Assembly: GCA_000697335.1 (NCBI GenBank)
Contig: JNEM01011310.1
Coordinates: 1 to 36,335 of the forward strand
Source: Conidiobolus incongruus B7586
Lineage: Eukaryota
Reading direction: 5' to 3'
Length of the DNA stretch: 36,335 nt
Shown: piece by piece, positions 4,393-33,971 of the stretch
Layout of the letters: each line of letters begins with the position of its first letter
Position numbering within the stretch: position 1 is the stretch's first letter
Translations under genes and position numbers: made by a program
Notes under the pieces: model-generated
Seen by the model: the letters and a program-made list of their open reading frames with translations, nothing else
Database searches by the model: none
What the model was told of the DNA's origin: nothing

Positions 4393-4476
4393 AGCTAATT
4401 TGGGACTGAAAATTTTTCAACTTGATTTCCAAGTCCTATATTTCACTTAAGTGCTGGGTTTATTACTTCATTTAAG

Positions 4477-5079
4477 ATGGCTCCCGTTCATAAAATCCTT
4501 CGCAACCGTGCCACCCCAGTCCCTTCTTCTGCCCCCACATCCTTACCTTCTTCCCCTCGCCCTAGTTCTACTTCTGAACAAGATGCCGCTACTCTCGAAA
4601 TGATCCGTAAAAAGAACAGGGAGCGCAAAATGATTTGGCGTAAGAACAACAGTGGCAAGAATAAAGATAATGATCTTAAATGCCGTGTTAAGAAGCGCGC
4701 TAATGACTTATACGGTCCCTTCGATTCAGTTGCCAAACAAATGTTTATTGAGCAAGAATTTCAAAAGCGCCGTAATAAGAGACTCGCAAGGGAAAACCGC
4801 TTAAACCAGAATGGATCTCCTCAACCCACTCCCAGTGTTGGATATGAGGATGTTGCTGACATGTTGGGATTCTCTTCTAGCAGCTTTACTAACACTCCTG
4901 CCGAATCCAGTCCCACACCAATGCCTGAAGAAGTTCCTAATGTCATTCCCACATTCTTCCGTGGATCATTGGAAATTTCAACTAAGCGTCGCTTCGTTCC
5001 AGATACTCCATCTAATGTTGCTGATGATACTATCGCCATTGCCCAAGCCTTAGTTGACTTCAGTCAATCCTTCTGTTAA
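4477..5079 (+). CDS. DUF3020-domain protein (Spp41/Adn1-like putative nuclear regulator), 200 aa, intronless
   Basis: IRKKNRERKMIWRKNNSGKNKDNDLKCRVKKRANDLYG...FIEQEFQKRRNKR matches the fungal DUF3020 pattern (NRERKKxWR...NKDNDLRxRVxKRA). S/P-rich flanks and coding-like GC content. Confidence 0.8.
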   Translation: MAPVHKILRNRATPVPSSAPTSLPSSPRPSSTSEQDAATLEMIRKKNRERKMIWRKNNSGKNKDNDLKCRVKKRANDLYGPFDSVAKQMFIEQEFQKRRNKRLARENRLNQNGSPQPTPSVGYEDVADMLGFSSSSFTNTPAESSPTPMPEEVPNVIPTFFRGSLEISTKRRFVPDTPSNVADDTIAIAQALVDFSQSFC

Positions 5080-8072: not shown

Positions 8073-10779
8073 TTAAGTGAAGAGACATAAAGTATGATCC
8101 GCACCACACGAGAAGATCCAGGGTTGAGTGGGATGGAACTGAGTTTGTAAGACACCTAAACTGTCCGTGATTTCATGACCTCTCAAGATCTTGACAGGGA
8201 CAATAAGAGGATTTTGTAAGAGGTCGGAGTATACCATACCATGGAAGATTTGGATGGTACCATCGTCCGAACTTGAGGCGAAGAGTGGGTAGCGAGGATG
8301 ATAGGTGACTGAACGGATGGCTTGCTTGTGGAATCGGAGGGTCTTATAGGGCTTGCTGGACCAGTCCAAATCGAACCAGCAGAGTCTTCTATCATAACTA
8401 CCTACAATGACGTTGTCACCCTTAGGATGGACATCCAAACTAGATAACCATTGAGCTCCAGATTGTAAAGTACGTTCCAGTTTTTGAAGTTGCAAGTTAT
8501 AAATACGGACAGTGCGTTGTAATAACACCAAAAAGTGTGGCTTGGTGGGGTGGAACATAAGTTTTTGAACTTTACCTTGGAGCTTGTGGAAAGGTCTTTG
8601 AGTAGAGTGTTTGGAGAGTTGATGGATCAAGATGGAGTTGGGACCATCTTCAGGTGAGAGAGTGGCAAAGTAGTCACCCTTACGATGCCAGATAACTTGG
8701 GCTAAGTCTTTAGTGACACCAATAACAGCCAAGACATCTTGGTCAGCTTCAGATTGAGTGGGCTTTCTCCATTCAGCCTTGGATTTGTCAGTCTTCATAC
8801 CAGCAGCAGCTCTACCTGAGCTAATTAAAGAAGTAGTTCTAGTCAAAGCTTCAGAATGAGTAAGTAATTCAGGGCAGAGTAGCCAGACTTCATTCTCACA
8901 GCAAATAGCAATCAAATTAATTTCAGGGTTAGGATTCCAAGCGACTGAGGTAATAGGAGCAGATAATTTGTAACTCTTGAGGCATCTACCAGTAGAAACT
9001 TCCCAAATTTTAACAGTTTTGTCATCTGAACCACTAACCATGTAGACACCAGAAGGGTCAAGGGAGAAGGAACGAATACGATGAGTGTGTCCCTTATATC
9101 TAATGGCCAATTTGGTAGGGAAAGGCTGGAGATCTTTAGGATCAGGTAGTTTGGGAATTAAAGATTCAGGATCAATATCCAACTAATATAATAAATGAGT
9201 AAAAATAATGTGATAAGTACAAAATAACTAACCTTATTCTTTCTAGATCTAGGATTCAAATAGAGATTCATACATCTCTTGAAAGCTTCTTGGTAGCTTC
9301 TAGCATAACCAGGAACACTTCTCAAATTATTATACCTAATAATAATCAATCAATCATGCAAATCAATATATTTACCCAATAAAATTACTTTTGAGGAATA
9401 AAGTCCTTTTCACGATCTTCGGGAGCAGTCTTTTGCCATTCTTCCTTCTCTTCGTCATTAAACAAGTATTCTTCGGGAGGATTGTAGGATTCACTATGAT
9501 CTGGTAAGGCCTTCTTGGGAGCTGGCATAAAGTCTCTGTCTCTCATCTTGTTTTCAGCAGAATCGTCCCAAAGGTTGTAAGTCTTAGGAGTTTTAGACTT
9601 TTTGACCTTCTTTAACACAATTTTGCCCTCTCTGATGGCTCTAACTAATTTCATAATCTAAAAATTATGATTAATAACTATAATATTATAGTTTGATGAT
9701 AAAATTATACCTTTTGATTTTCCCATTTGGAAGGTTGGAATCTGCGTTTAGGTTCAGGAGCAGAGCTCAAAGGCATTTCTTCTACTTTAGAAGTGAAATA
9801 TTCGATGGTTGGCTAATTAATTATATTAGAAATTAGCTAATGAATATAACCAGTATATAAAATGCTTACTTCATAAGGATTGTAATCAAGTTGAGGGAAT
9901 TGACCCAATTGAACTTTCTTAATAATTTGTAATTCTTCTTCAGACAATTTAACATTCTTTTGACCCAATTCATCACGAACAGTTTTCCTAATTTTGAATA
10001 AATAAACCTGAATATATATAAAATCATGAAATAGTTATTACCAAGCGTCGGGATCGTCCATTTGATCCAAGAATTTATCTAATTCGTCACCTTGAGCAGG
10101 ACGGTAGATCTTTTTACCATCGACATTGTAACCAATGTGAGGGAATTCATCGTACCATTCCATAGGAACATTACCAATAGTATTTTCATTCTAAAAAAAT
10201 GTTAAAATAGTTATTACATTAGAAATATTTGCATAATTACATCTTCAGCAGAAGTATCAGAATCATAGATGGGATCGATTTCTGGAAGCTTTTCATTGGG
10301 ATCTTTCTTAGATTTTTTATCAGTTTTGGGTTTAGTTTCTTCTTCCCAATCAAATTCAGATCTAAAAATTTGAATCAGAATATGTATAAAATTGGGAATT
10401 ATTCTAATATTTACTCAGAATCATCATCATCATCATCTTCACTAACATCAGGATCAGAATCCAATTCTTCATCATCTTCACCGTCATCCTCCTCTTCAAT
10501 ATCAGCTTCTTCATTATCGGATTCATCCTTCAAAGTTTCACTTCCGTCAGTATCGGATTCAGGGAAGTCCAATTCGTCACCAGAATATTTTTCCTCTTCA
10601 TCTTCGTTAATAGTCTCCTCATCGCCCTCAATGGTCATAGAATCCAATTTAAATTCTGTATCGTTAACAGTTTTTTCCAATTGTTGATCGAACTCATCAT
10701 CACTTTCAATTTCCTTTAAGGTTCTAACTTTATCATTTTTACTAGATTTTTCTTGAAGTTTGGATTTAGATTTAGCCAT
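8073..10779 (-). CDS. ERB1: Ribosome biogenesis protein ERB1/BOP1 (PeBoW complex), about 778 aa, 8 exons
   Basis: Exons 10779-10415, 10361-10241, 10190-10042, 9987-9870, 9812-9711, 9657-9389, 9335-9233, 9182-8073; all introns GT-AG and frame is conserved. Acidic N-terminus, BOP1NT motifs ([58 protein letters not shown]) and a WD40 C-terminus ending [21 protein letters not shown]. Confidence 0.97.
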
Positions 10780-11237: not shown

Positions 11238-12824
11238 ATGGAAAATAGTAATAATATTTCAACACCCATTAAAAATGGCCCACCTGATGCAGATTCAGAT
11301 CCCGTTCAACTTACTCCCGCTCAATTAAGAATTGCTAATAAAAGAGTAATGCTATCTTATCTATAATGAGTTTATAATTAATCAATTTTGACTTAGAAAC
11401 AACTATTTTCAGGGAAATCATCTAGTAAAAATGATTCGATGAACACACCGTCAAAATCAGCACAAATTCCAGTTAATAGATTTGCTAATACGCCGTCCAA
11501 GAGGGAAGACATTGTCACTCCTGTGAAACATGCGAGATCTTCGATGAATTTGAAAAGAACTTCGTCATTGATGGATATGTTTCAAACTCTTTCTAACGAG
11601 CTTAGAGTTCCTGAAATTGTAGAAAATGGATCACTGTCTAAATCTTTACACCAACTATCTGAGGTTGACTTCATTTCAAAACATAATTTCGATAGTGAAA
11701 ATAGCCAAGATGAAGAAAGTGTTGGATCGTTTTATAGTGAAGAGGAAGAGAGTGAACAAGTTGAAATGGCTATTGTTACACCTGTCAAAAAGGGTAAACT
11801 GATCCAGAATTCGGATTCTATGATGCTTTCTTGGAGTCAAAAGAAACCTGATACGCCTTCTATACCTCTTCCAGAGTTACCCAAATTTGATAAATTGAGC
11901 ACAGCTCAAAAAATCGAACCTAGTCCTCAATTACATATTGATTTATTAGATCAAACATTAAAAACTCAGGTTACATTCCAATGGAAAGAATCTGTTAACT
12001 TTCAAAAACTAGGTAATCATGACAAGATTAAGTCTTATATAACGAGTGGCATTCAATTAGACACTGAGAACTCTGTCGAGTCATCGCTTTACAAATTTTA
12101 TGCATCGACTATCAATTATCAATACCCATTAAGACCTTTTTCCCCTTCATTTTCCAACAGTTTAAAGTCCATACTACTGAAGCCTATTCGATTCAATACT
12201 CAACAAACTGCATCCAAAACCAAGACTGCCAAGCAGGATTTGCAGACAAAAGAAAAGAATTTCTACCTCCAGTTGGTATTGGAATGGTCCCAAGTGTTTG
12301 ACAACCTCTTCAAAAGCTACTTCTCCTATAAATTAATCCAACAATTCACTTATATCAACTGCTCATTCAGTGTGCAATTCATCACCTGCCAAGAAGCCCA
12401 AATTCCCCAATGCATTATTTACAACTGTCCCTTCTCATTCAAAAACTATCTTAACAAAAACTCTGTCAAATATGAAATTTTGACAAATTCCAACACTTCC
12501 AAATTCTCGACACCCACTACGAATGTATGGATCTTAACTCTCGAGGGAGTACAACAAGTTTACAGTTATTTAAAAACTTACAAGCCTATCGAAATAGATT
12601 TTGAATCTTTTTCGCTTCCGAAATTGATTTGCAGAGATCCTTTCCTATTGGGAACTAAAATATTACCCGAATTACAATGGAAGGATGATAAATTGGAATT
12701 TGGTAATGGGTTTTTGATGCAGTCTCAAGTGAAGGAGATTCAGGATTGTTTGGGTGAGTTGATCAAGGATGATAAAATTAACTTTAATTGTACTACTTTG
12801 ACTAAATTGAATCCTAATACTTAA
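11238..12824 (+). CDS. DONSON: DONSON-like (downstream neighbor of SON / humpty dumpty family) replication factor, about 511 aa, 2 exons
   Basis: Exon 1 11238-11345, GT-AG intron 11346-11396, exon 2 11397-12824 in frame. Collinear motif similarity to animal DONSON as I recall it: DQTLKTQVTF~DWSIKTRLLF, FYASTINYQYP~FQQSLIYWLHP, EWSQVFDNLF~DWSVSFTSLY, FTYINCSFSVQF~FYVCTYQFTVLF, LPKLICRDPFLLGT~PPTLLSPVAFRGAT, LEFGNGFLM~LEITGPIM. Confidence 0.75.
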
Positions 12825-13448
12825 TAAAATCAACTTTAATTGGTTGTTTTTTATTTGTTCATAATTTTGATTTATTATAATCAATTGCAATACTTGATAA
12901 TTAATGATTCCATATAATCAAAATTCGTAAAATTAACAATATATTAAGCAAATATAATTAAATAATGATATATTACAAATTTATTTATGTATTTATTTTC
13001 AAGCAATAAATCAAAACAAGATGATGATTTTGAATTTTTAAATTTTTTACTCATCAAATTGTAATAATTCTTAAGACAATATTTTATAATGATATTACTT
13101 CTATATTATATTGATATCTGGTTTAACTAGATAAGCTTACTATAAATTATAGCTAATAGTAAAAGATCGATTATTGATGATATAAAGTAATTAATAAACT
13201 TGCTTAATGAGTGTTCAATAAATTCTTATTAAAGTTCAGAGACTTAAACCAATATAACTCTCTTATAAATAATTCGATTAAACCATTATATCAGACTGAA
13301 TTCATTCTATTATTAAACTCGGGCTGAAATATGATTCTAGCCTTTAAGTTTAAAATTGTTATATCCATGTTGAAATAACCAATTATAAATGTATTACGAT
13401 AGATGGAAAAGTATTTATTAATGTATAATAATGGTTATATAATATCAT

Positions 13449-15469
13449 CTATGCACCATATTTAAGGTAATATTGCAATACTTTTGGATGTGCTTGTACT
13501 TTTGAGGGATCAAAATTAAGTAACTGCAAACCGTCCACGGCAGTACATCTACTGAGTGCGACATAAGCTTGACCTAATATTTAATTAATACCCGATGTAA
13601 GATAGAGAAATTGAAGATAATACCTTTTTCAAAAATTCTAGCCAAATCAATTTTTACCTTTTCAAGAGTCAGACCTTGAGCTTTATGAATGGAGATAGAC
13701 CAAGCTAAACCCAGTGGAACTTGAATGCGCATGGCGAGAGTTTCACCATTATTATCCCAAACAATTTCTTCAGGAGTGATTACTTGGTCGTATCCGTTAA
13801 TAAACTTTACACGAGGATACATACGATTAGCATCGAATAGATCTTTGTTTTTCTTATCACTTAGAGAAAGAGGACTTGGATATTCAAATCCCACAACTTT
13901 ACCTAGAAGACCATTCACTAAACTTGAACCAGAACTAAGATTTTTGAGTAACATCACTTGAGACCCAACTTTGAGATCCAGCTGTTCAGGAAGTCTACAT
14001 ACATTGTTGAGTTGTTTTTTAAATATTTCTTCTCCAGTGTCATAGGCTATATACCTATATATATCTCCTGTTAATTGCGCAAGTTTTGTTGAGTTGAAGG
14101 CGTCAACTTCATTTCTAGTGGAGAACAATTGAGTTGGTTCAATTCCATCTTCCATGTTTAAAGGTCTACTTAAAGTTTGGAATAAGTCCAATGAAGCTTG
14201 TGTAATTATTCCCAAGCGAACTTCATTTAAAATCCTTGATAACTCTATATAAAAGCTAATTAGTATTAACGAATTAAATATTAATACTAGTATTACCAGG
14301 ATCTTTTTGACGGTAGATCTTTTTCAATATTATCGTTTCCTGAATACATCTGTCCCAAGTTTGTGCTTCGAAAGCAAATTTTATATTGGCGTCTTTTTGA
14401 ACTGGTGGAAGCTGGAAGAAATCTCCTGATATAACCAACTAGTAATAAAAATCAAATTTAATTTCAAATTAACTAAAAAATATAAAATTATTACTTGAAT
14501 ACCACCAAAAGGTTGATTATTTCTTCGAACCACTCTGGCTATGTACTCTAATTTATCAAATAAAGAAGCATCCATCATGGATACTATAAATAAATTTTAA
14601 TACGATATTAAATAGTTAAAATAATAAAAATATTTACTTTCATCAATAATTAACAATTGAACATCTTCCCATCTCTTTCTCTTGTGCTTATTTTTCATAA
14701 TAGCTTCAGCCAACTTTTCAGCAGTATTGGTACCAAGACCAATTCCTGCAAAACTATGAATAGTAGAGCCACCTAAATGAAAAGCTGCTAGGCCCGAAGT
14801 AGCTGTTACAGCTATATAACTGGTGCCAGCATCATAATAAAGCTTGTTGGTTCTGCCAGTATATTGCACGCTTTGGGCAATATCAATAATTTTTTTGATA
14901 ATTAAAGATTTACCAGTACCTAAAACAATATTTAATAAATCAAAGTTCTACATAAGGGACTGTTATTATTATATTGAAAATAACTCACCTGCAGAACCGG
15001 TAAAGAAAACATTTTTCTTATGAGCAAAAATGAAATCAATAACTCCCTGTTGTTCTGGGGAAAGTTCCCTCGTGACACTTGATCTATAATTCAAATCATC
15101 TTTGCTGAAGTGTGAATTGATTTCGATAGGACTGTTTCTATTGATGCTTTTGGAAAATGGTTGGTTTTGCTTATCTACATTTAAAAATCTCTCTGAGAAT
15201 GACGAATTTCTCATAAAAGTTTGTGTTTGAGTTTGAATTCTGGAACTAAATGTAGGCGAATTATGTTTAACAGAGTCAAAAGCAGCTTGAGGATCTATTT
15301 TTGTTTTACGCTTTTGACTTTCAATAAATAAGCTGTTAACATTTTTTGGAGTGGACATAGATTTAAAAAATTGTGAGATTTTAGGCTGAGCGTCATTATT
15401 ATCTTTTTTAATAGATTTAGATTTAGATTTAGAATTTTTAGAATTTACAAATACTCCTGACCCAAACAT
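13449..15469 (-). CDS. PIF1: PIF1-family 5'-3' DNA helicase (Pif1/Rrm3/Pfh1-like), about 579 aa, 6 exons
   Basis: Exons 15469-14989, 14919-14638, 14583-14495, 14438-14297, 14244-13624, 13573-13449; introns GT-AG. Motifs [29 protein letters not shown], Pif1 signature [59 protein letters not shown]. Confidence 0.96.
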
Positions 15470-15619
15470 ATTTTAAAAAATTTAAATAATTAATCAAAAT
15501 AAAAAAAATAATAGGTAAAGAAGAGATATTTATTCTTTTTGATTTTTATATTAGAGTTCATTCTACACAAATTAATCAAATTAATTACTTTATTGGGAAA
15601 CCAGAATTGTCATGTAAAA

Positions 15620-15687
15620 TTTCGTGATGGCCAATCAAATGTCCTGACAATACAAAATATTGATTGGATATTACAAATCATTTCGTG
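15620..15687 (-). promoter_or_regulatory. Two SCB-like elements (CACGAAA) and a pair of CCAAT boxes upstream of PIF1
   Basis: TTTCGTG at 15620-15626 and 15681-15687 (CACGAAA on the gene strand), flanking CCAATCA (15631) and TGATTGG (15661), 150-220 bp upstream of the ATG. Confidence 0.5.
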
Positions 15688-15908
15688 TTTTATAAAATGA
15701 TTATTAATACATAAACAAAAATTTGTTTGGTACATGTAATATCAAACAAAAACACGGTATAATAATATGTAAAAAAAACTATCTTCATTAATTTATTATT
15801 TATAAATATCATCTAACGCTTTGTAAAAAATTATAATTAAATATCATTATTAATCAGTTGAATTATCCAATCATATAATATGAATTAACATTTATTAAAT
15901 ATAAAAAA

Positions 15909-17659
15909 TTAAACAGAATTAATATTTTTTAAATCACATTGGTTATCTTTAGGGAAATAAATTAAGAAATCGCCACTCTTACCAAAAGATCCAGGATTGG
16001 CATACAAACAGTAATCAGTAGGGATACTGTAAGCTGTGTTAGAATCAGGTAAAATTAAAATATCTGGTAGATAGTCTAATCTTAAGCTGTGATCGAATTG
16101 AGGATGAATAGGCTGGCAATTAATGGGAATTGGTGACAGATGTCCTCCTTGAACAATAGTCTTCAACAAATTCATCTGTGAAAATTGATTGATATTGGTT
16201 GAATCCTTGTTGAGTTGAATGAGTTGATTTCGATGAATTTGCTGGAATAAGTTCTGTCGATATATATTTAACTCCCTCTTACAATATAGTACCTTAGTTG
16301 GATTAGTGGTAAAATGCACGTTTCTTAATATTTCTTTAAGTGGCTTGACCAAATAATTTAGTAGGGGAGTTTGTGGAATTGCAGAACTGATATTAAGGTC
16401 GTTAGGTCCTGGAATGAAAATAAAGTGGGACCAACTACACAATCTTGGGAATTTGAAAAGACACTGAGCCAATTTACTGAATCCTGTAACATAATTTGTA
16501 AAGCTCGCAGAATTGGAATTGATGGGGTTGGAAATAAAATTGCCACTCAGGATAAATGATAGAGGCACGGTTGGAAAATCTGATGTAGATTGATTAATCT
16601 TAGTTAGTAAAGCTTGGAAATCTTCCAAGGTCTTAGATTGATCTAAGAAAAAGTCGGAGATCATTATCATATAAACATCAGATGATTGCTCTTGAATTGT
16701 GTCAATTTGAGCTTGTGATAGAGGAAATGGTGGTTTGTTAGAAGGGTGGTAAGGATGACTAGGAGGAAGCGATTGTGGCTTAGTAAATTCGTAAGAAGGA
16801 AACTCAATTCTTTCAACTGAAAAGACTTTGTCTGGATCCAATTGACCGTGAATTAATACCATGCAATGATCTGTTAATAAATCCGTAGTAGATTCGCATT
16901 TTTCAAAAGATAGAGGGATATAACCGTCAGGATCTTGAAGATGAATAGTGTTATCAATGATTGTAAGCATTCCAAATAAAGTAAATTTGCCAGAAGTTCT
17001 ACCTAAGATTGATTTGGTGCTATTAAGGAATTGTGATCCTTGTCGACTCAGTCTTTTTGGGACATTGTTTTGGTTAAGGCGAGTATAGATAGAGTAATAT
17101 CTATCATGATACATCTGATACCTTGCTTCAGGGCCAGAAAGAAGTGATGTAGGTTTAAGATCCCTATAATTAAGTGAGTAAACAATCCATTTGGTTAAAT
17201 TAAGAATTTTACTTGATTAATTGTTTTTTCAGTGGATCATATGTTGCCTTAACCATATCAAAGGCATCAATAACTTTGAGTAAATTAGATACGTCAACTT
17301 GATCACCCCAACTTTCAGAAACAATCATCTCTCCTTCATTTCCTACCCCTAATAGAGTACCCAACTGTTTCTGCACTCTTTCAAGATCGTTTGGCTGAAT
17401 AATAATATTGCCATCTATTTAATCAAATATGCTAGTTAGAATTGAGATATTAAGACATATAAATAAAAATACCTAATAATTCCTTGCATTTTTGAGCCCA
17501 AATAATCAATTTGTTGGTTAAATCTGAATCAGAGTTTGATTGGTTAAAATATTGTATAATATAATTTACAGATTCTGAAGATAATAATAACTGATTTTGT
17601 TTAGTAAAAATTCTATGAATTAAACTAGTCGATATATGATAGTTGGGTTGTGAGCTCAT
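15909..17659 (-). CDS. DPB2: DNA polymerase epsilon subunit B (DPB2/POLE2), about 547 aa, 3 exons
   Basis: Exons 17659-17473, 17414-17213, 17163-15909; introns GT-AG and in frame. Motifs KVIDAFD, LFGMLT, HLQDPDG, ISDFFLD, FILSGNF, SHFIFIPGPND, FTTNP, QGGHLSP, DHSLRL..LPDILILPD, NPGSF are typical of the POLE2 inactive phosphoesterase fold. Confidence 0.93.
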
Positions 17660-17858: not shown

Positions 17859-19299
17859 ATTTTTATTACTCTTTATGCGAATTTATATTGAATTTGATAA
17901 AATAGAGGTTAAATTAAAATAAGTGATATATATTTTAATAATTATTATATATAAATAATATGTTATGAGTTATATTTTTTATTAATATAACAATGATGTT
18001 TTTCAATTCAATAAAATTTAAAAAAAATAATTTTATTATAAGCGATTTTAATACATTGAAAATTAATAGTTTCTGTTTTAAAACTTTGACTATTATTTTT
18101 CAATATTCTTGAGTGGTATTATTGCTCATTCAGATTGTTAAATTGATTTATTACAAAAACTAATGAGTATAAAATTAATTTATTTCAATAATGAGGAATA
18201 TCTAGAGTATCATCAATGTAAAGATCTCCATAGACACATTAATGTTTATTTAATATGATAGGTCATTAATTGCAATATATAATATACTACATGATTATAT
18301 TAATATCGCTTCAATTACGAATCTATGAACTAAAGGATACAATAGTATAAGTATATCACTACAATCATTACAATATTGCTTTTTGAAATAATATAAATAC
18401 TCAAACCTTTTTAATTGATATATTAATACTCAAGTATTAAACATCATTTGACTCGTTCTTTGCATTGCTTTAATCATGATTCTAGTAAATCTTTTTTGTA
18501 AACATTTCGTTATTTAAGAGCAATTATATTTCCATTTAACAGCTTATTATAAAAGATTATTTTAATGTTAAAGTGTTTCTTAAATACTTGAGCACAGGAC
18601 TGTGTAATGATTCTTTATGATTGGATAATAATTCAATAAGCCACTCGTCATTCCATATATTAGGTGTACTAATTTCACTGTTTGATAAGATTGAGCCATT
18701 ATAATTGTTTGATACTTTATTAATGAAGTTTGTGTGTAAATTTTAAATTTTGGTTAATATTTAATATTTTGGGAAAATATTATCAAAAATCAAAATCGTT
18801 TTAGAATCGGTTCAAGTTTTAAAGGTACCTGAATTTTAGATACTATTAACAAATAAATCGTGTTTATTTATTGATATCCAATTACTTAAGTATAATTAAA
18901 GCTTTATAAATAATCCGTAATATTTAAACAACCAAGATTAATTAAATATTAAATATAATTGATAATCATTCCCTATTCAGTTAATATTATAATTTTTATA
19001 CTTAATTCTTTGTTATAATCATTTATTGATATTGATAGCTTGAAAATTATTCATTCTCATTCATAATGTTAATAAGAATTATGTTTTAAAAGATATATTT
19101 AATGGATTTAAAAGCAATTGAACGGAGATGCATTGTTACTTTTAAAATTCTGGACTTTTGGATCCTATTATAATAACGATACTATAATGTATATGGAAAT
19201 TTCGACTAATCAAACTAAAAGTGATCGATGTTATTTTCGAATGCCAACAAAGATTATATAAAGAATAATGAGTAGATTAATGAATTTCATAGTACTAAT

Positions 19300-20604
19300 A
19301 TGTTATTCAAAATGAAGTCAATTATCCATATTACTCTCCAATTATTGTCCTTTTCCTTATTGAAGACTTTTGCTCAAGATGTCAGCGCAACTGAAAGGGA
19401 TGCCAATAAAACAGTCGAAAAGAGATTAGTTTCACATTTGCAAGATTATATTAAAATTAAAACCGTTCATCCTTCTCCCGAATATCACAAATCTACCGAA
19501 TTTTTGGCCAGATATGCTAAAGATCTCGAAATTCCTCATCAAGTGATCGAGTGTGTAAAAGGCAAGCCTATTGTCATCATGACCCTCAAGGGCAAAGATC
19601 CAAATCTTCCATCAATCTTCCTCAACTCTCACACTGATGTTGTGCCTGTATCTTTGGTTCACTGGAAGTGGGATCCTTTCTCAGGTCAATTAGCTAAAGA
19701 CGACAAGGGTGAGGAGATCATCACTGGTAGAGGCACCCAAGATGCAAAGAGTATTGGAGTTGCCTATCTTGAAGTTATTCGCGCTTTAAGCAAAAAGGAA
19801 TTCGACCTTTTGAGAAACATTCATGTTGCCTTCACTCCAGATGAAGAAATCGGTGGTATTGATGGAATGAAGTGCTTTGTGGAATCTCAAGATTTTAAGA
19901 AATTAAATGTTGGATTCGCTTTGGACCAAGGTTCTGCTTCTCCTGTAGATAATTTCAAGGTATACTATGGTGAGAGAGTCAGTTGGTCCATCAATGTGAC
20001 TGCTGTTGGTGATACCGGCCATGCTAGTACTTTTGTCAAGAATTTGGCTTATGAAAAGTTCAACAAATTTTACAATCATTTGAGCGAATTAAGAAAAGAG
20101 GAGGAACAAAAGTTAGAATCTGGAAAAGTTGCTAATATCGGTGAAGTTACCACTATCAATTTGACTATGCTTAAAGCAGGAGAAGCTACCAACACCGTCC
20201 CCGATACCATTAATGCTTATTTTGATATTAGAGTTTCTCCCAGAACTGATTTGAACAAGTTTAAGAGAGAATTAAACAAATGGGCTAAAAATTCAGATGT
20301 GAGCTTTGAATTTGTTAAGGGAACTCCTCAGCACACTATTACCGAGTATCAAAACACCATCTGGTGGAAAGCTTTTGCCCATACTGCTAAAGTTCATAAT
20401 GTTACTTTGAGTACTGAAATCTTCGGTGGAGCAAGTGATTCTAGATATTTGAGAGAGAAGAATATTCCAGCACTTGGTATCAGTCCTTTCCGCTTGCATC
20501 CATATTTGGCTCACAACCATAATGAATACCTTAAAGTTGACACCCTTGTCAATGGTTTCCAATTTTATAAGACTTTGATCCAAAGATTGGCTAATGCAAA
20601 TTAA
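19300..20604 (+). CDS. ACY1: Aminoacylase-1-like M20A metallopeptidase with predicted signal peptide (copy 1), 434 aa, intronless
   Basis: LNSHTDVVPV, GRGTQDAKS, PDEEIGG, YGER, GHAS, FDIRV, SDSRYLRE, AHNHNEYL. Hydrophobic N-terminus MKSIIHITLQLLSFSLLKTFA (alternative start 19312). LDEG motif reads LDQG. Confidence 0.92.
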   Translation: MLFKMKSIIHITLQLLSFSLLKTFAQDVSATERDANKTVEKRLVSHLQDYIKIKTVHPSPEYHKSTEFLARYAKDLEIPHQVIECVKGKPIVIMTLKGKDPNLPSIFLNSHTDVVPVSLVHWKWDPFSGQLAKDDKGEEIITGRGTQDAKSIGVAYLEVIRALSKKEFDLLRNIHVAFTPDEEIGGIDGMKCFVESQDFKKLNVGFALDQGSASPVDNFKVYYGERVSWSINVTAVGDTGHASTFVKNLAYEKFNKFYNHLSELRKEEEQKLESGKVANIGEVTTINLTMLKAGEATNTVPDTINAYFDIRVSPRTDLNKFKRELNKWAKNSDVSFEFVKGTPQHTITEYQNTIWWKAFAHTAKVHNVTLSTEIFGGASDSRYLREKNIPALGISPFRLHPYLAHNHNEYLKVDTLVNGFQFYKTLIQRLANAN

Positions 20605-21756
20605 TTTTAAAATATATCTATAATTTTCTATTACAAACTGATTTTATATTAATTTTGTAATAATTTTTATATAAATATAGAAATAAGATGATTAATAGTT
20701 AGAAAAATGATATATATTTCTATGTTGCTATTGATAATTTGATACTTTGATATATTAACAAGAATGATAGATTGGGCTACTTTTAATTTGAACTAAAATC
20801 TATCAACAGATTAAATCCAATGTAGGTATTAAATTTCATATAAATAAATGGTAGAAAAAATCGATTAATTTTAGTCTGAAGTTAATATAAAATTATATCT
20901 CAGAGTTGAGCATTATCTTTTCAATTTCTTATATTTGAACTTAATATATTTCAAAGGATATCTGATTCTAATTTTATCAATTAGCATATATTTAATTATT
21001 GTTGATTTGGATACGAATGAAATTCATTGTTTCTAGAATTTGTAGTTAGTTTGAGATCAATATTCATGTAAATTATACTTGATCTATGATAATATTATAT
21101 TTTACAATAATTTATAATTAAAGATGACTGATAGAAAAGTACATGTAATATAATTTTGTAAATTATTTATTAATCCTCTGCTATTTAACATATCAGGACT
21201 GTATGTCTTAAAACTTACTGTTGAAACATTGTAGCAGAATATCCAGAAAAACACTCTTTATCTTTATCACTTTTGGGGTTTAAATAGTTGATTTAGTGAA
21301 TGATATAGGGCTTGATTAAAATCTAATAAAGAGAACAAAGAGAACAAAGAACATCCTTTAATTATAGATTGACAAAGACAACTTAAAATAGAAATAATAT
21401 AGTTTAACTATCAAATTTGGAAGGGTAGTTAATTTTGAAATACAACAATAATATTGATTAAAAATATAAATTCTTCATTTAATTTATATTTAAACAAAGT
21501 AAAATTGAGGACATTATTATATATATTATTTGCTACAATAAAGTATCTTTTAGATATACTGATTCCTTAGATAATTATATAATAAGAGAATCGAATATTA
21601 AACTAATTGTGTTATATATTTTTATTCCAATAGATACTTTATAATTTAAATCATGTGATTAAACAATTTATTATGCTTGTAAAGTTTTAAATCAAGATTT
21701 ACATATATCCAGAGAGCTTTATTAATCTTCTGGAATTTATTAGAAAACTATTCAAC

Positions 21757-23020
21757 ATGGTATCAATATTTAAAAGTCTCTTCCTTTTTGCATTATTAGA
21801 TGTATTCTAAATCACCATATTCTAAAATGTAAACCGATCTCAAGAATCCAATGATGCAAGTAAGAATGCTCTAATATCTAAGATGCAAGAATACCTCCGT
21901 ATTAAAACTCTTAATCCTACACTCGATTATACTAAATTGAATTATTGGCTATGATAAGTAATTGAATATTACATCTAAGATCTTTTAATGTGTGAAAGGA
22001 GTTCCCCTTGTCATCATGATCCTCGGGGGCAAAGATCCCAATCTCCCATCAATCTTCCTCAACTCTCACACTGAGGTTGTGTCCATATCTTTGGCTCGCT
22101 GGAAGTGGGATCCTTTCTTTGAAGAATCAACTAAAGATGAGCAAGGTAAACAAATCATCATATGTAGAGAAGCATAGGATTGTAAATCAATTGAAGCCTT
22201 TTACCTTGAAATGATCAGATCGTTGAAGAAGTCGAACTTCAGCCATTTGAGAACTATTCGTAAATCATTTTCTCCTGATGAAAAGAATGGCAGTTATCCT
22301 AAAATGAAATACCTTTTAAAATCAACGAGTTCAAGAAGATAGATACTGGATTCTCTTTGTACGAGAAAGGCATGAATCTTGATGACGGATATTTGGTATT
22401 TATTCGTGAGTGTTAGATGGTCCAATGATTTGATAGCTTTTGGTCATTTTGGCCACCCTAGTACATTTGTAAAGAATTTGGCTTATGATAAATTTGAAAA
22501 TATAATCACAAATTGAGTAAGTTTGAAATCCAGGAAGAAGGGAAATTAAGAAATGGAAATGTAGTTGACCTTGGAGATATTACTGTTATTAATCCAATCA
22601 CTTTGAAGACCGGACAAGCTGCAAACACTGTACCTGATACCATTAATACAGTTTTCGATATTAGAGTTTTAGCCAAGACTGATTTACACCAGTTGTATTT
22701 ATTCAAATGGGTTAATCAAACTAGAGTAAGTATTGTATTTACTGAGGGCACTTTCAACACCTCTATTACTGATTACCCAAATTCCATATGGTCAAAATCA
22801 TTTACTGAGTCAGCAAAAGAATGTAATATAATTTTATGTACTAAGATTTTCTCAGGAGGGATCAGTTATAGATATTTAAGAGAGAAAAATATACTATCAA
22901 TTTGAATGAGTCCTTTAGATTAAACCCAGGCTATGCTCACAATCATAATAAACGTCTCAGAATAAAAGTACTTTTTTATGAATTTAAGTTTTAAATTTTA
23001 TTTTCAAATTACCCAACTCT
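21757..23020 (+). pseudogene. ACY1: Aminoacylase-1 pseudogene (copy 2)
   Basis: Full-length collinear similarity to the flanking copies (MVSIFKSLFLFALLDVF*, LISKMQEYLRIKT, GKDPNLPSIFLNSHTEVV, ANTVPDTINTVFDIRV, RYLREKNI, AHNHN) broken by several stops and frameshifts. End coordinate approximate. Confidence 0.9.
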
Positions 23021-27003: not shown

Positions 27004-28311
27004 ATGCGTTTATACCATATGAAATCAGTTTTAGTTAATTCTTTTACGATCCTGTTTTTAACCTGCAGTTCTTTTGCTGCAGACTCGACCTCTACTCAAA
27101 GTAAGGTAGTGAATGATTCAAGTGAACAGACGTTGATTTCTAAGCTTCAAGAATATATTCGCATCAAGACTGTCCATCCTACTCCGGACTACGCTAAATC
27201 CACCGAGTTCTTGGTTAACTATGCTAAGGAACTCAACCTCCTATCTCGAGTATATGAATGCATCAAAGGGAAGCCATTTGTCATTATGACTTGGGAAGGG
27301 AAGAACCCCAGCCTCCCATCTGTTGTCCTCAATTCTCACAGTGATGTTGTACCTGTATCTTTGGCAAACTGGAAGTGGGATCCCTTTTCTGCAAAAATTG
27401 CTAAGGATGCTGAAGGGAAGCAAATCATCACTGGGAGAGGTTCACAGGACTGCAAACCAGTGGGAATTTCATACCTCGAGACTATTAGAGCGTTAAAGAA
27501 GTCCAATTTTAGCCCTTTGAGAACTATTCATGTTTTTTTCTCACCTGATGAGGAGCTTGGTGGTATTGATGGAATGAAGTGCTTTGTTGCATCAAATGAA
27601 TTCAAGAAAATGAATATTGGATTCTCTTTAGATGAGGGAGCAGTACTACCATTAAATGAGTACAGAGTATTCTATGGCGAGAGAGCCAGATGGTTGGTCA
27701 ATGTAACTGCTGTAGGAGATACAGGTCATGCTAGTACATTTGTTAAAAACTTAGCTTATGAAAAATTCAATAAATTCTATCAAAAGTTGAATAAGTTTAG
27801 AAGTGAAGAAGAGAAGAAATATGAAAATGGACTTTTGGGCGATAATGGAGCGGTGGCAACCATAAATCTCACATTCCTCAAAGCTGGTCAAGCCTTAAAC
27901 GTAATTCCTGATACAATTAATGCCATATTTGATTTTAGAGTTTCTCCTAATACTGATATAGCCAAGTTTAAAAAGAATTTAGTCAAATGGGCCAACCAAG
28001 CAGGCGTAAGTTTAACCTATCCTGAGGGCACACCAGATCCCTTAGCAACTAATTACAGCAATACCATTTGGTGGAAAGCTTTTACTGATTCAGCTAAATC
28101 TCACAATGTGACTTTAAATCCTTACATATTTGGAGCAGCTACTGATTCCAGATATTTGAGAGAGAGAAACATCCCAGTTCTAGGTTTGAATCCTTTTAGA
28201 CTCAATCCAATGTTGGCACACGATCATAATGAATATCTCAAGGTCGAATCTCTTATGGACGGTTTTAAGTTTTACAAACTTTTAATTCCTAGGTTAGCTA
28301 ACATAGCTTGA
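27004..28311 (+). CDS. ACY1: Aminoacylase-1-like M20A metallopeptidase with predicted signal peptide (copy 3), 435 aa, intronless
   Basis: LNSHSDVVPV, GRGSQDCK, PDEELGG, SLDEG, GHAS, FDFRV, TDSRYLRE, AHDHNEYL, so all metal ligands are present. N-terminus MKSVLVNSFTILFLTCSSFA|AD. Confidence 0.94.
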   Translation: MRLYHMKSVLVNSFTILFLTCSSFAADSTSTQSKVVNDSSEQTLISKLQEYIRIKTVHPTPDYAKSTEFLVNYAKELNLLSRVYECIKGKPFVIMTWEGKNPSLPSVVLNSHSDVVPVSLANWKWDPFSAKIAKDAEGKQIITGRGSQDCKPVGISYLETIRALKKSNFSPLRTIHVFFSPDEELGGIDGMKCFVASNEFKKMNIGFSLDEGAVLPLNEYRVFYGERARWLVNVTAVGDTGHASTFVKNLAYEKFNKFYQKLNKFRSEEEKKYENGLLGDNGAVATINLTFLKAGQALNVIPDTINAIFDFRVSPNTDIAKFKKNLVKWANQAGVSLTYPEGTPDPLATNYSNTIWWKAFTDSAKSHNVTLNPYIFGAATDSRYLRERNIPVLGLNPFRLNPMLAHDHNEYLKVESLMDGFKFYKLLIPRLANIA

Positions 28312-31502: not shown

Positions 31503-33971
31503 ATGGATACCAATAAAGAACTTGTCCTTGAAAAAGTTAAAAAAGTTAAAGAAACAGTTACTGAGATTAACCGTTGTTTTAAATTTGTCAAGTTTGCTAA
31601 AGAAGGTACTATCCTCTTTAAACTATGTAATAATGAAATCTAACTAGATGATTTCATTTTATTTAGAAATGGAGAAATTTAAAAAGTTACATGAGGAGTC
31701 AAATGGTAAAGTTTTAAGTCTTCAGGTCGAACTACAAGAAAAAGATGCTCAATTAGTCCAAGCCCAAGTTTCTATGTCTAATTTAGCTTCAGAAGTCAAT
31801 AATTTCAAAACCAAAGACAAATCCTTTGAAGTAAAACATAGTTTATCATTATGATCATTTATATTTATAATAACTCTTATTTTAGACTTTAACTTCTCAA
31901 TTGAACCATAAAATTGCTGAGTATAAGGAACAACTTGACCTATATCGAGAAGTTGAAGACCAAAACAAAAAGTTGCAGAAAGAGAACTCTAAGCTGTAAT
32001 TATTATTTTTAAAGTGAAAAAGCTTTCATAATATATTAACCTTGCTATTTTAGTAAAAATGAGAAAAACTCCCTTGGGGCGGAAATCTATGAGCTCAAAA
32101 ACAAAATTAAAGAGAATGTTACAAATCAGGTGAATCCAGCACAACTAACTGATCTTCAAAATCAAAAGAATGAGCTCCAATTGGAAAATATGAGATTATC
32201 TGCAGAAAACGCCGAGTTGATAACGAGACTACAGAAAGCAGATGAGGAATTGAAGAACTTCCAACAAAAGCTGGCAAATATTGATTCCGATTATTCTATG
32301 CTTGAGGAAATGGTGTCGAAAGCTTTTGCAGCTGATAAAAATACGCTAATCACAAAATCTGACAAAAATAAATATAAACTAAAGGCTAAGAATCTCAAAG
32401 TCAAGTTAGCTAATGCTAATGCCAAGATAGCTCAAAAGAACGAAAAACTTAAGTCTGCCAAAAAGAAAATCCAGCAAATGATGACCTTTATAAATCAGTC
32501 GGCTTTGAGTCCATCTATGACCTCTATGAATGCACCTCCCTCTTTTTGTGAAATCTCGAGCATACCTCCTCCACCCGCATCTATAGAAACTTCCGCTCTG
32601 AGCAATATTGTAACTCATACTTCTATAACTCCCCACGATTCTCCAGTTCTCAACTCTCAATCTTTCGCTAAAAAACCTAACCAATCATCTCAGTTGAATG
32701 CGACAAATTATGATATAGACAGTATTTTTAATGATAACGATAACGATGATTTAGCGAACACATCTACTAACAAAAACCCATTCAACAAAGATTTTACAAC
32801 AAATGGAATCTCAAAACACAATTTGAATGTGTTGAGCCAATCTGAGTTTCAAGCATTGACCCAATCAATTATGGATGATCTTCTCTCTGATGATGAGAAT
32901 GATGAAGAACAATCAACACTAGTTACAGACTCTACTATATCTAAGAGATCATTAACAGGCAACATATCTTCCTCAGGTCAAGCACCTCAAAATAAACTTG
33001 TTCAATCTAAGAATCCTGTTGGTGATCGCATTCAACAAATGAAGTCAAAGGCTTTAAAGGCCTCTCAAGCGCAGTCTGCTTCCTCAGCTAGTGTTCCACC
33101 TACATCTAATTCCTATCATAACTACTATCCTCGTTTCACAATCGAGACTAACCTGAAACGACTTTTGCAAAAACTACCATACACCAAAGGTCTCACTTCT
33201 CTTTATGTAAAAAACTGCGAGCCTATGATTCAAGATACTAGTGCCATATTAATGAGTATTTTAAAACTAGTCAAACAGTCATCCATTGGCCAACTGGAAA
33301 TGGGGGAGACTATCTTTGAATCACTTGATGAAGTTTGGGTAAACTCTGTTTATCGAGTACCTTTGAACACAGATTTGCAGGATTTAGAATATAGAATCAT
33401 TATTAGCCTTGTACTTTTTAATACCCATTTTCCAAAATATAATCTGATTGAGTACATTATGGATCAACTGCCGAAGCATATCCTCGATCCTGTCGAAAGT
33501 TTGAAACAGCCAGTCTCATACACTTCGTCATTATGTCAAATATTTGTATCACTTTGTAAAATTACTGAAGATATTGCCCGATGCCGTGTTTTCTTTTATG
33601 ATGTTTTGACTCTTTTTGTAGATTGCCCATTTCAATTGCAAATTTTGTCAACCATTGCAAATATTTACCCTGAAGTTGCCTCATATTCAGAATCTAATCC
33701 TCCTCATCTCAACATTTTTTTAAATGTAATCGAGTCAGCCATTGCTGGTATATTTATGGCAGACACGAACGTCGATGATGAGGTATATCAAATATTTATT
33801 GATAAGTGTAACTGGAGCTTACTACACCAATCTCCTACTCTGCTCGAATCAATTGAGAAACTTAGTGAATTGCAGCTAGATTCAGCATCTCCCGATGAAA
33901 GTATAGACTTTTTAATCCAACAATCGCTGACTATTGCGAGAATATTTGGATCAGAGCAATTAAAATTTTAA
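31503..33971 (+). CDS. Coiled-coil protein with ICE1-like (little elongation complex subunit 1) C-terminal helical domain, about 764 aa, 4 exons
   Basis: Exons 31503-31605, 31667-31830, 31886-31995, 32054-33971; introns GT-AG and in frame. N-terminal coiled coil, S/N/D-rich disordered middle, and C-terminal SLCQIFVSLCKITEDIARCRVFFYDVL...IANIYPEV...KCNW resembling ICE1 ALCRVYVGICRQLGDLERARLFCYSLL...IANMWHDI...FLNW (recalled). Gene model is solid; ICE1 identity is moderate. Confidence 0.6.

Follow-up and report, generated by a model that had tools for sequence, protein, structure and literature searches.

The gene at positions 11238–12824 (+) of the window, by which is meant the whole 36,335-nt stretch of DNA analysed, very likely encodes a strongly diverged homologue of DONSON, as judged from a predicted structure. 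DONSON serves in animals to assemble CMG, the helicase that unwinds DNA; the candidate appears to be without the D3 loop that grips MCM3 and so probably functions in a modified manner. According to the reading favoured here as a whole, to which a probability of roughly 0.45 is given, this diverged DONSON would still take part in CMG assembly without a D3 helix and would be linked to Dpb11/TopBP1 through a tail carrying CDK sites. The presence of DONSON in an early-diverging fungus is already known and is not new; orthologues in fungi have been stated, with that of Mortierella elongata as an example (OAQ33768.1; 24%, 2E-14 to human; Evrony 2017 and its supplement, in excerpt). What may set the candidate apart from this known presence is the apparent loss of the MCM3 helix combined with the CDK-site-rich tail, and, if the reading is true, a conserved DONSON without that helix would show which parts of the protein go first and what takes over from them. 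The preliminary description of this DNA regarded DONSON function in fungi as essentially uncharacterised, which is consistent with the matches listed in the open-access literature, a body of work that leaves subscription journals mostly outside; no work on a DONSON copy without the MCM3 helix was among those matches.

Gene model and predicted DONSON-like core

As read from the sequence, the candidate is an intact, real gene of two exons that starts with ATG at 11238 and encodes 511 amino acids followed by a stop. Its parts are:

11238–11345 (+): exon 1, residues 1–36, a disordered start with the CDK site TPIK (11262–11273) and the first part of a basic helix-like motif (11313–11345)
11346–11396 (+): intron of 51 nt, phase 0, GT..AG
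11397–12824 (+): exon 2, residues 37–511 and the stop, a single open frame

The GC content of the intron is 0.22, compared with 0.35 in both exons, and its size is in line with the 49–58 nt intron candidates of the neighbouring ERB1 and DPB2 genes; left unspliced, exon 1 stays open for only 6 further codons before a stop. The first exon had indeed been missed by the open-reading-frame track, as initially remarked, and the splice junction creates the motif TPAQLRIANKRKQL, the basic helix-like motif being situated at residues 26–40, across the junction. This helix presumably resembles the N-terminus of DONSON, and the order of motifs in the candidate, which we take to be like that of DONSON, is used as a lead only.

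The only relative retrieved from the databases, by a word-index search, is P0001, a JGI 'hypothetical protein' with 61% identity in the core and 63% over 424 columns, the model of which begins at the equivalent of candidate residue 95. Since the candidate is conserved with P0001 to 61% in the core, it is probably under selection, and it diverges faster than DPB2 does between the same two organisms (82%). Searches of the Atlas with the candidate were blank, and a metagenome scan for the gene yielded 220 pattern matches, none of them confirmed. The profile searches made here gave no link to DONSON, the family match by which the preliminary description was to be checked: the Pfam scan gave 0 families, and a profile built from only two sequences (the candidate and P0001), run against 1,835,955,588 representatives (1.84 billion proteins) at E ≤ 0.001, returned a single match, P0001 itself. 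Searches of PDB sequences with the single sequence and with two-sequence profiles found no DONSON chain at E ≤ 10; matches to CooA and RPABC2 (E 0.07–2.5) were dismissed as noise. The Mortierella DONSON, in contrast, is found by plain sequence search, whereas the candidate goes undetected even by the two-sequence profile.

The support for DONSON comes from structure. The regions concerned are:

11907–12821 (+): predicted folded DONSON-like core, residues 207–511, superposed on DONSON only in part
12330–12581 (+): subdomain superposed on DONSON, residues 348–431, corresponding to Xenopus residues 283–435 and worm residues 280–474

A model computed from the two sequences without templates had a pLDDT of 42.5 and a pTM of 0.34, with pLDDT rising to 84 in the central sheet. 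In a Foldseek search of 350,542 chains with this model, the entry of Caenorhabditis elegans DNSN-1 (8ouw) ranked first (E 0.02) and that of Xenopus laevis DONSON (8q6o) fourth (E 0.23), both E values lying above 0.001; the worm match extended over 296 columns with 11% identity and an rmsd of 24.6. VIA, run on 48,161 chains, gave only two with Z ≥ 5, namely 8q6o_R (Z 6.6) and 8ouw_F (Z 5.8), followed by a chain at 4.8; the two were taken as DONSON subunits from the entry titles, the residue ranges and the fact that no other CMG entries stood near the top, and the Z of 6.6 is below the 'typical best 7–8' that the tool quotes for models without a clear match. The superposition on Xenopus DONSON, the best structural match, had an rmsd of 3.9 over 79 aligned residues with 8% identity, and that on the worm protein, the second VIA match, an rmsd of 3.3 over 73. 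The same two chains led when VIA was applied to 998 Foldseek-ranked chains; in this set 7 chains had Z ≥ 5 and the next unrelated chain, at Z 5.5, was tied with the worm chain.

Because DONSON entries were among the leading chains in three blind structure searches, homology to DONSON is proposed, the family having been named before the searches were made. The DONSON-like identity put forward in the preliminary description is thus in all likelihood right, by structure over residues 348–431 and not by sequence. The superposition on DONSON, also foreseen there, held over these 84 residues, where the Xenopus and worm entries occupied ranks 1 and 2; the DONSON core fold is seen for 84 of the 305 core residues, with modest scores in a low-confidence model. 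It is very unlikely, in our estimate, that the protein is instead a lineage-specific CDK substrate with a small alpha/beta subdomain whose likeness to DONSON is a coincidence of a poor model. Such a view would accommodate the uniformly negative sequence searches, the Z values below 8 and the single-sequence model (pLDDT 38.6), with which neither Foldseek nor VIA found a DONSON match, but it leaves unexplained why DONSON structures from two distant animals should take the first two places among 48,161 chains with a gap to the third, and why a subdomain should follow a long disordered tail as the DONSON layout has it. In Xenopus DONSON, too, the folded core comes after a long disordered N-terminal part.

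The D3 loop and partner contacts of the core

Xenopus D3 comprises residues 345–395 with W381 (Cvetkovic 2023 PMC7616792, in excerpt), and its MCM3-binding helix has D374, E377, W381 and E384, the TOPBP1-BRCT3 contact being made by N430 (Lim 2023 PMC10801813, in excerpt). The corresponding worm helix (417–435) with W425 binds the MCM3 AAA+ domain and is essential (Xia 2023 PMC7615117). The D3 helix is described as required for CMG assembly, being essential in the worm and nearly so in Xenopus (PMC10801813, PMC7616792, PMC7615117, in excerpt). Two elements of the candidate model correspond to these regions:

12480–12521 (+): short loop at the D3 place, 14 residues, with no Trp-bearing acidic helix and of the same length in P0001
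12540–12581 (+): helix matching the N430-bearing Xenopus segment, which ends at 435, with no Asn in the candidate or in P0001

Across the D3 loop, residues 348–431 of the candidate, 84 in number, take the place of 153 residues in Xenopus and 195 in the worm. The candidate is thus about 70 residues shorter than Xenopus DONSON across 283–435, with D3 and its W381 included, and about 110 residues shorter than worm DNSN-1 across 280–474, the stretch that holds the W425 MCM3 helix. As 84 residues stand for the 153 of Xenopus and 79 of the 84 are aligned, no room is left for the MCM3-binding D3 loop, which appears to have been deleted; by structural register, a D3-loop helix with a tryptophan and acidic residues is absent from both the candidate and P0001. 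According to the model, therefore, the candidate appears to be without the loop by which DONSON grips MCM3. An asparagine equivalent to N430 is likewise absent in the predicted fold, a position mapped from the aligned range only. A hidden exon encoding the missing loop was considered and found unlikely, with a continuous frame and no second piece in the window; the 6 intron candidates in exon 2 include none that is AT-rich (GC 0.31–0.41).

These apparent losses bear on the suggestion that the lineage keeps an ancestral DONSON-type or a hybrid DONSON+Sld2 system, which found no support, the D3/MCM3 helix, the N430 asparagine, PGY and NPF all seeming to be lost. Since determinants essential in animals seem to be gone, the candidate looks derived and not ancestral, which argues for a stripped variant of DONSON. 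A state with both DONSON and Sld2 is, moreover, already described in C. elegans, which uses DNSN-1 and SLD-2 together (Xia 2023 PMC7615117 and PMC13421386, in excerpt). The two factors are unrelated (Lim 2023 PMC10801813, in excerpt), and no search produced a sequence or structural match of the candidate to Sld2/RecQ4, Pfam having been applied to the candidate and the structural comparison having covered the core, residues 207–511.

The loss of the D3 helix could equally mean that the role in initiation has been lost. The candidate would then be a DONSON homologue outside CMG assembly, a derived remnant kept for another S-phase job such as fork protection, checkpoint or Pol epsilon handling and heading for the same loss that most fungi have undergone, with GINS delivered by Dpb11 and Sld2 as in yeast. 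Four animal determinants that look lost or altered (the D3 helix, the N430 Asn, PGY/Y8 and NPF) would be expected of such a remnant, as would the extreme divergence, faster than that of DPB2 (61% against 82%), and a takeover of the DONSON role by yeast Dpb11 has been proposed in a 2026 Nature paper, which poses as an open question how yeast manages without DONSON (PMC13421386, in excerpt). We nevertheless regard this explanation as unlikely, because the core and two blocks of the tail are well conserved with P0001 and because the basic N-terminal helix-like motif and the CDK sites remain.

The N-terminal tail and its CDK sites

The part of the protein preceding the core contains the following features:

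11445–11789 (+): low-complexity tail with 4 full CDK sites (T53, T68, T77, T164), NRF, a conserved block and an acidic tract
11475–11483 (+): NRF
11571–11672 (+): conserved block of the tail
11682–11759 (+): acidic tract
11778–11888 (+): second conserved tail block, residues 164–200, holding W182

Residues 1–205 have 5 full CDK sites where 0.41 are expected, a number reached in none of 20,000 shuffles. Of the 11 segments tested, enrichment was confined to the exon-2 tail (4 sites, with 0.30 expected), and the 9 segments other than the two N-terminal pieces of the candidate had 0 or 1 site each. The site at T164 is kept in P0001, the one of the five that can be checked, the other 4 lying upstream of the start of the P0001 model.

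In Xenopus the N-terminal element that binds Sld5 comprises residues 6–22 with Y8 (PMC10801813, PMC7616792, in excerpt), and in the worm it is a helix at 4–19 (PMC7615117, in excerpt). Compared with Xenopus DONSON, the candidate lacks an Asn in the N430 helix and a Y8-like aromatic residue in its first 39 residues, and it has NRF in place of NPF. Exon 1 contains neither an aromatic residue nor PGY; in the N-terminus of the candidate as a whole, F40 is the first aromatic residue and PG[YF] does not occur. The NPF motif is absent from the candidate. NRF had been noted at the place where an NPF-like motif might be expected; it is present at residues 63–65, but its occurrence is within chance: of 20,000 shuffled tails, 35% contain an N-x-F, and an N-[PRK]-F is found in 7.7%. 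NPF itself is dispensable for CMG assembly in Xenopus (Lim 2023 PMC10801813, in excerpt). Since an NKF variant in EXO1 is predicted to use the NPF pocket of POLE2 (POLE2-NPF paper, in excerpt), binding of NRF to that pocket is possible.

Residues Y513, E520 and S522 of human POLE2 are needed for NPF binding (POLE2-NPF paper, in excerpt). At the C-terminus of the DPB2 encoded in the window (15909–15960, −), the corresponding residues are F, D and K, as they are in its relative P0002, those for E520 and S522 being read from an ungapped extension beyond the printed alignment. This is difficult to reconcile with a canonical DONSON of animal type, in which the MCM3- and TOPBP1-binding motifs would simply have moved or diverged, an explanation that we consider quite unlikely. 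Motifs in disordered regions can change position, and the W182 block is a speculative candidate for a relocated partner-binding motif: over residues 162–186, 20 of 25 are identical to P0001, and the conserved tryptophan adjoins the acidic tract. The W182 segment, however, has 1 acidic residue within −8 to +4, unlike the helix with D374, E377, W381 and E384.

The reading favoured here, in which a diverged DONSON acts in CMG assembly without a D3 helix, would proceed as follows. The core would dimerise as in animals and the basic N-terminal helix would bind Sld5 of GINS. For docking on MCM, the core would touch GINS and the N-terminal domain of MCM3, the D3 helix playing no part; the folded domain of worm DNSN-1 itself contacts both (PMC7615117). 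CDK phosphorylation of the tail may have taken the place of the constitutive TOPBP1-BRCT3 contact, or that contact may have weakened, and the phosphorylated tail might be read by BRCT pairs of Dpb11/TopBP1, by analogy with yeast Sld2 and Sld3. The likeness to budding-yeast Sld2 is one of analogy only and consists in CDK sites grouped within a disordered stretch of a protein that may deliver GINS. In its most far-reaching form, this would make the protein a rewired DONSON, with the core dimer kept, the MCM3 helix and the TOPBP1 contact lost and a CDK tail feeding a Dpb11 circuit, an extant link between the DONSON pathway of animals and the DONSON-free one of yeast; we hold this form to be rather unlikely.

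Gene neighbourhood

The window consists of AT-rich eukaryotic DNA. The genes around the candidate are ERB1 (−), the candidate (+), PIF1 (−) and DPB2 (−), in this order, with DPB2 3 kb from the candidate:

8073–10779 (−): ERB1/BOP1, divergent, 458 bp from the ATG of the candidate
13574–15469 (−): PIF1 helicase, limits approximate
15909–17659 (−): DPB2/POLE2, Pol epsilon subunit B (human POLE2, E = 1.3e-48)

The candidate, PIF1 and DPB2 are three replication genes in 6.4 kb (11238–17659), a grouping that may be due to chance. DPB2/POLE2 is a known partner of DONSON in animals (POLE2-NPF paper, in excerpt). A word-index search with DPB2 found only P0002 (82% identity), and, as P0001 and P0002 are each listed on one contig of 71,177 bases, the linkage of candidate and DPB2 is probably kept in the relative. 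Distant ERB1-like loci amounted to 479 stretches, of which 80 were kept, many of the loci being short and some not ERB1; next to none of the 80 did a DONSON-like gene or DPB2 turn up (E of the best match 0.87), as far as the weak two-sequence profile can detect one.

Upstream of DPB2 there are an MCB-like ACGCGT and an SCB-like CACGAAA (17750, 17852), and two further CACGAAA precede PIF1 (15620, 15681), together all 3 CACGAAA and one of the 2 ACGCG of the window. This distribution may point to promoters of a yeast-like G1/S type for DPB2 and PIF1; no MCB or SCB box was found upstream of the candidate.

An open reading frame at 4426–5076 (+) has a DUF3020/SPP41 domain (E 1e-16), which we take to be a fungal family and which suggests an early-diverging fungus as the source of the DNA, while the best match of ERB1 is to human BOP1 (407 bits), the yeast proteins giving about 371. 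An open frame of 643 codons at 32040–33968 (+) looks coiled-coil-like by eye and has no Pfam family at E ≤ 0.01. Three tandem copies of an M20 peptidase with hydrophobic N-termini are present at 19276–20601, about 21720–22917 and 27004–28308 (all +); the outer two are open and 61% identical, and the middle one, with in-frame stops and frame changes, looks like a pseudogene.
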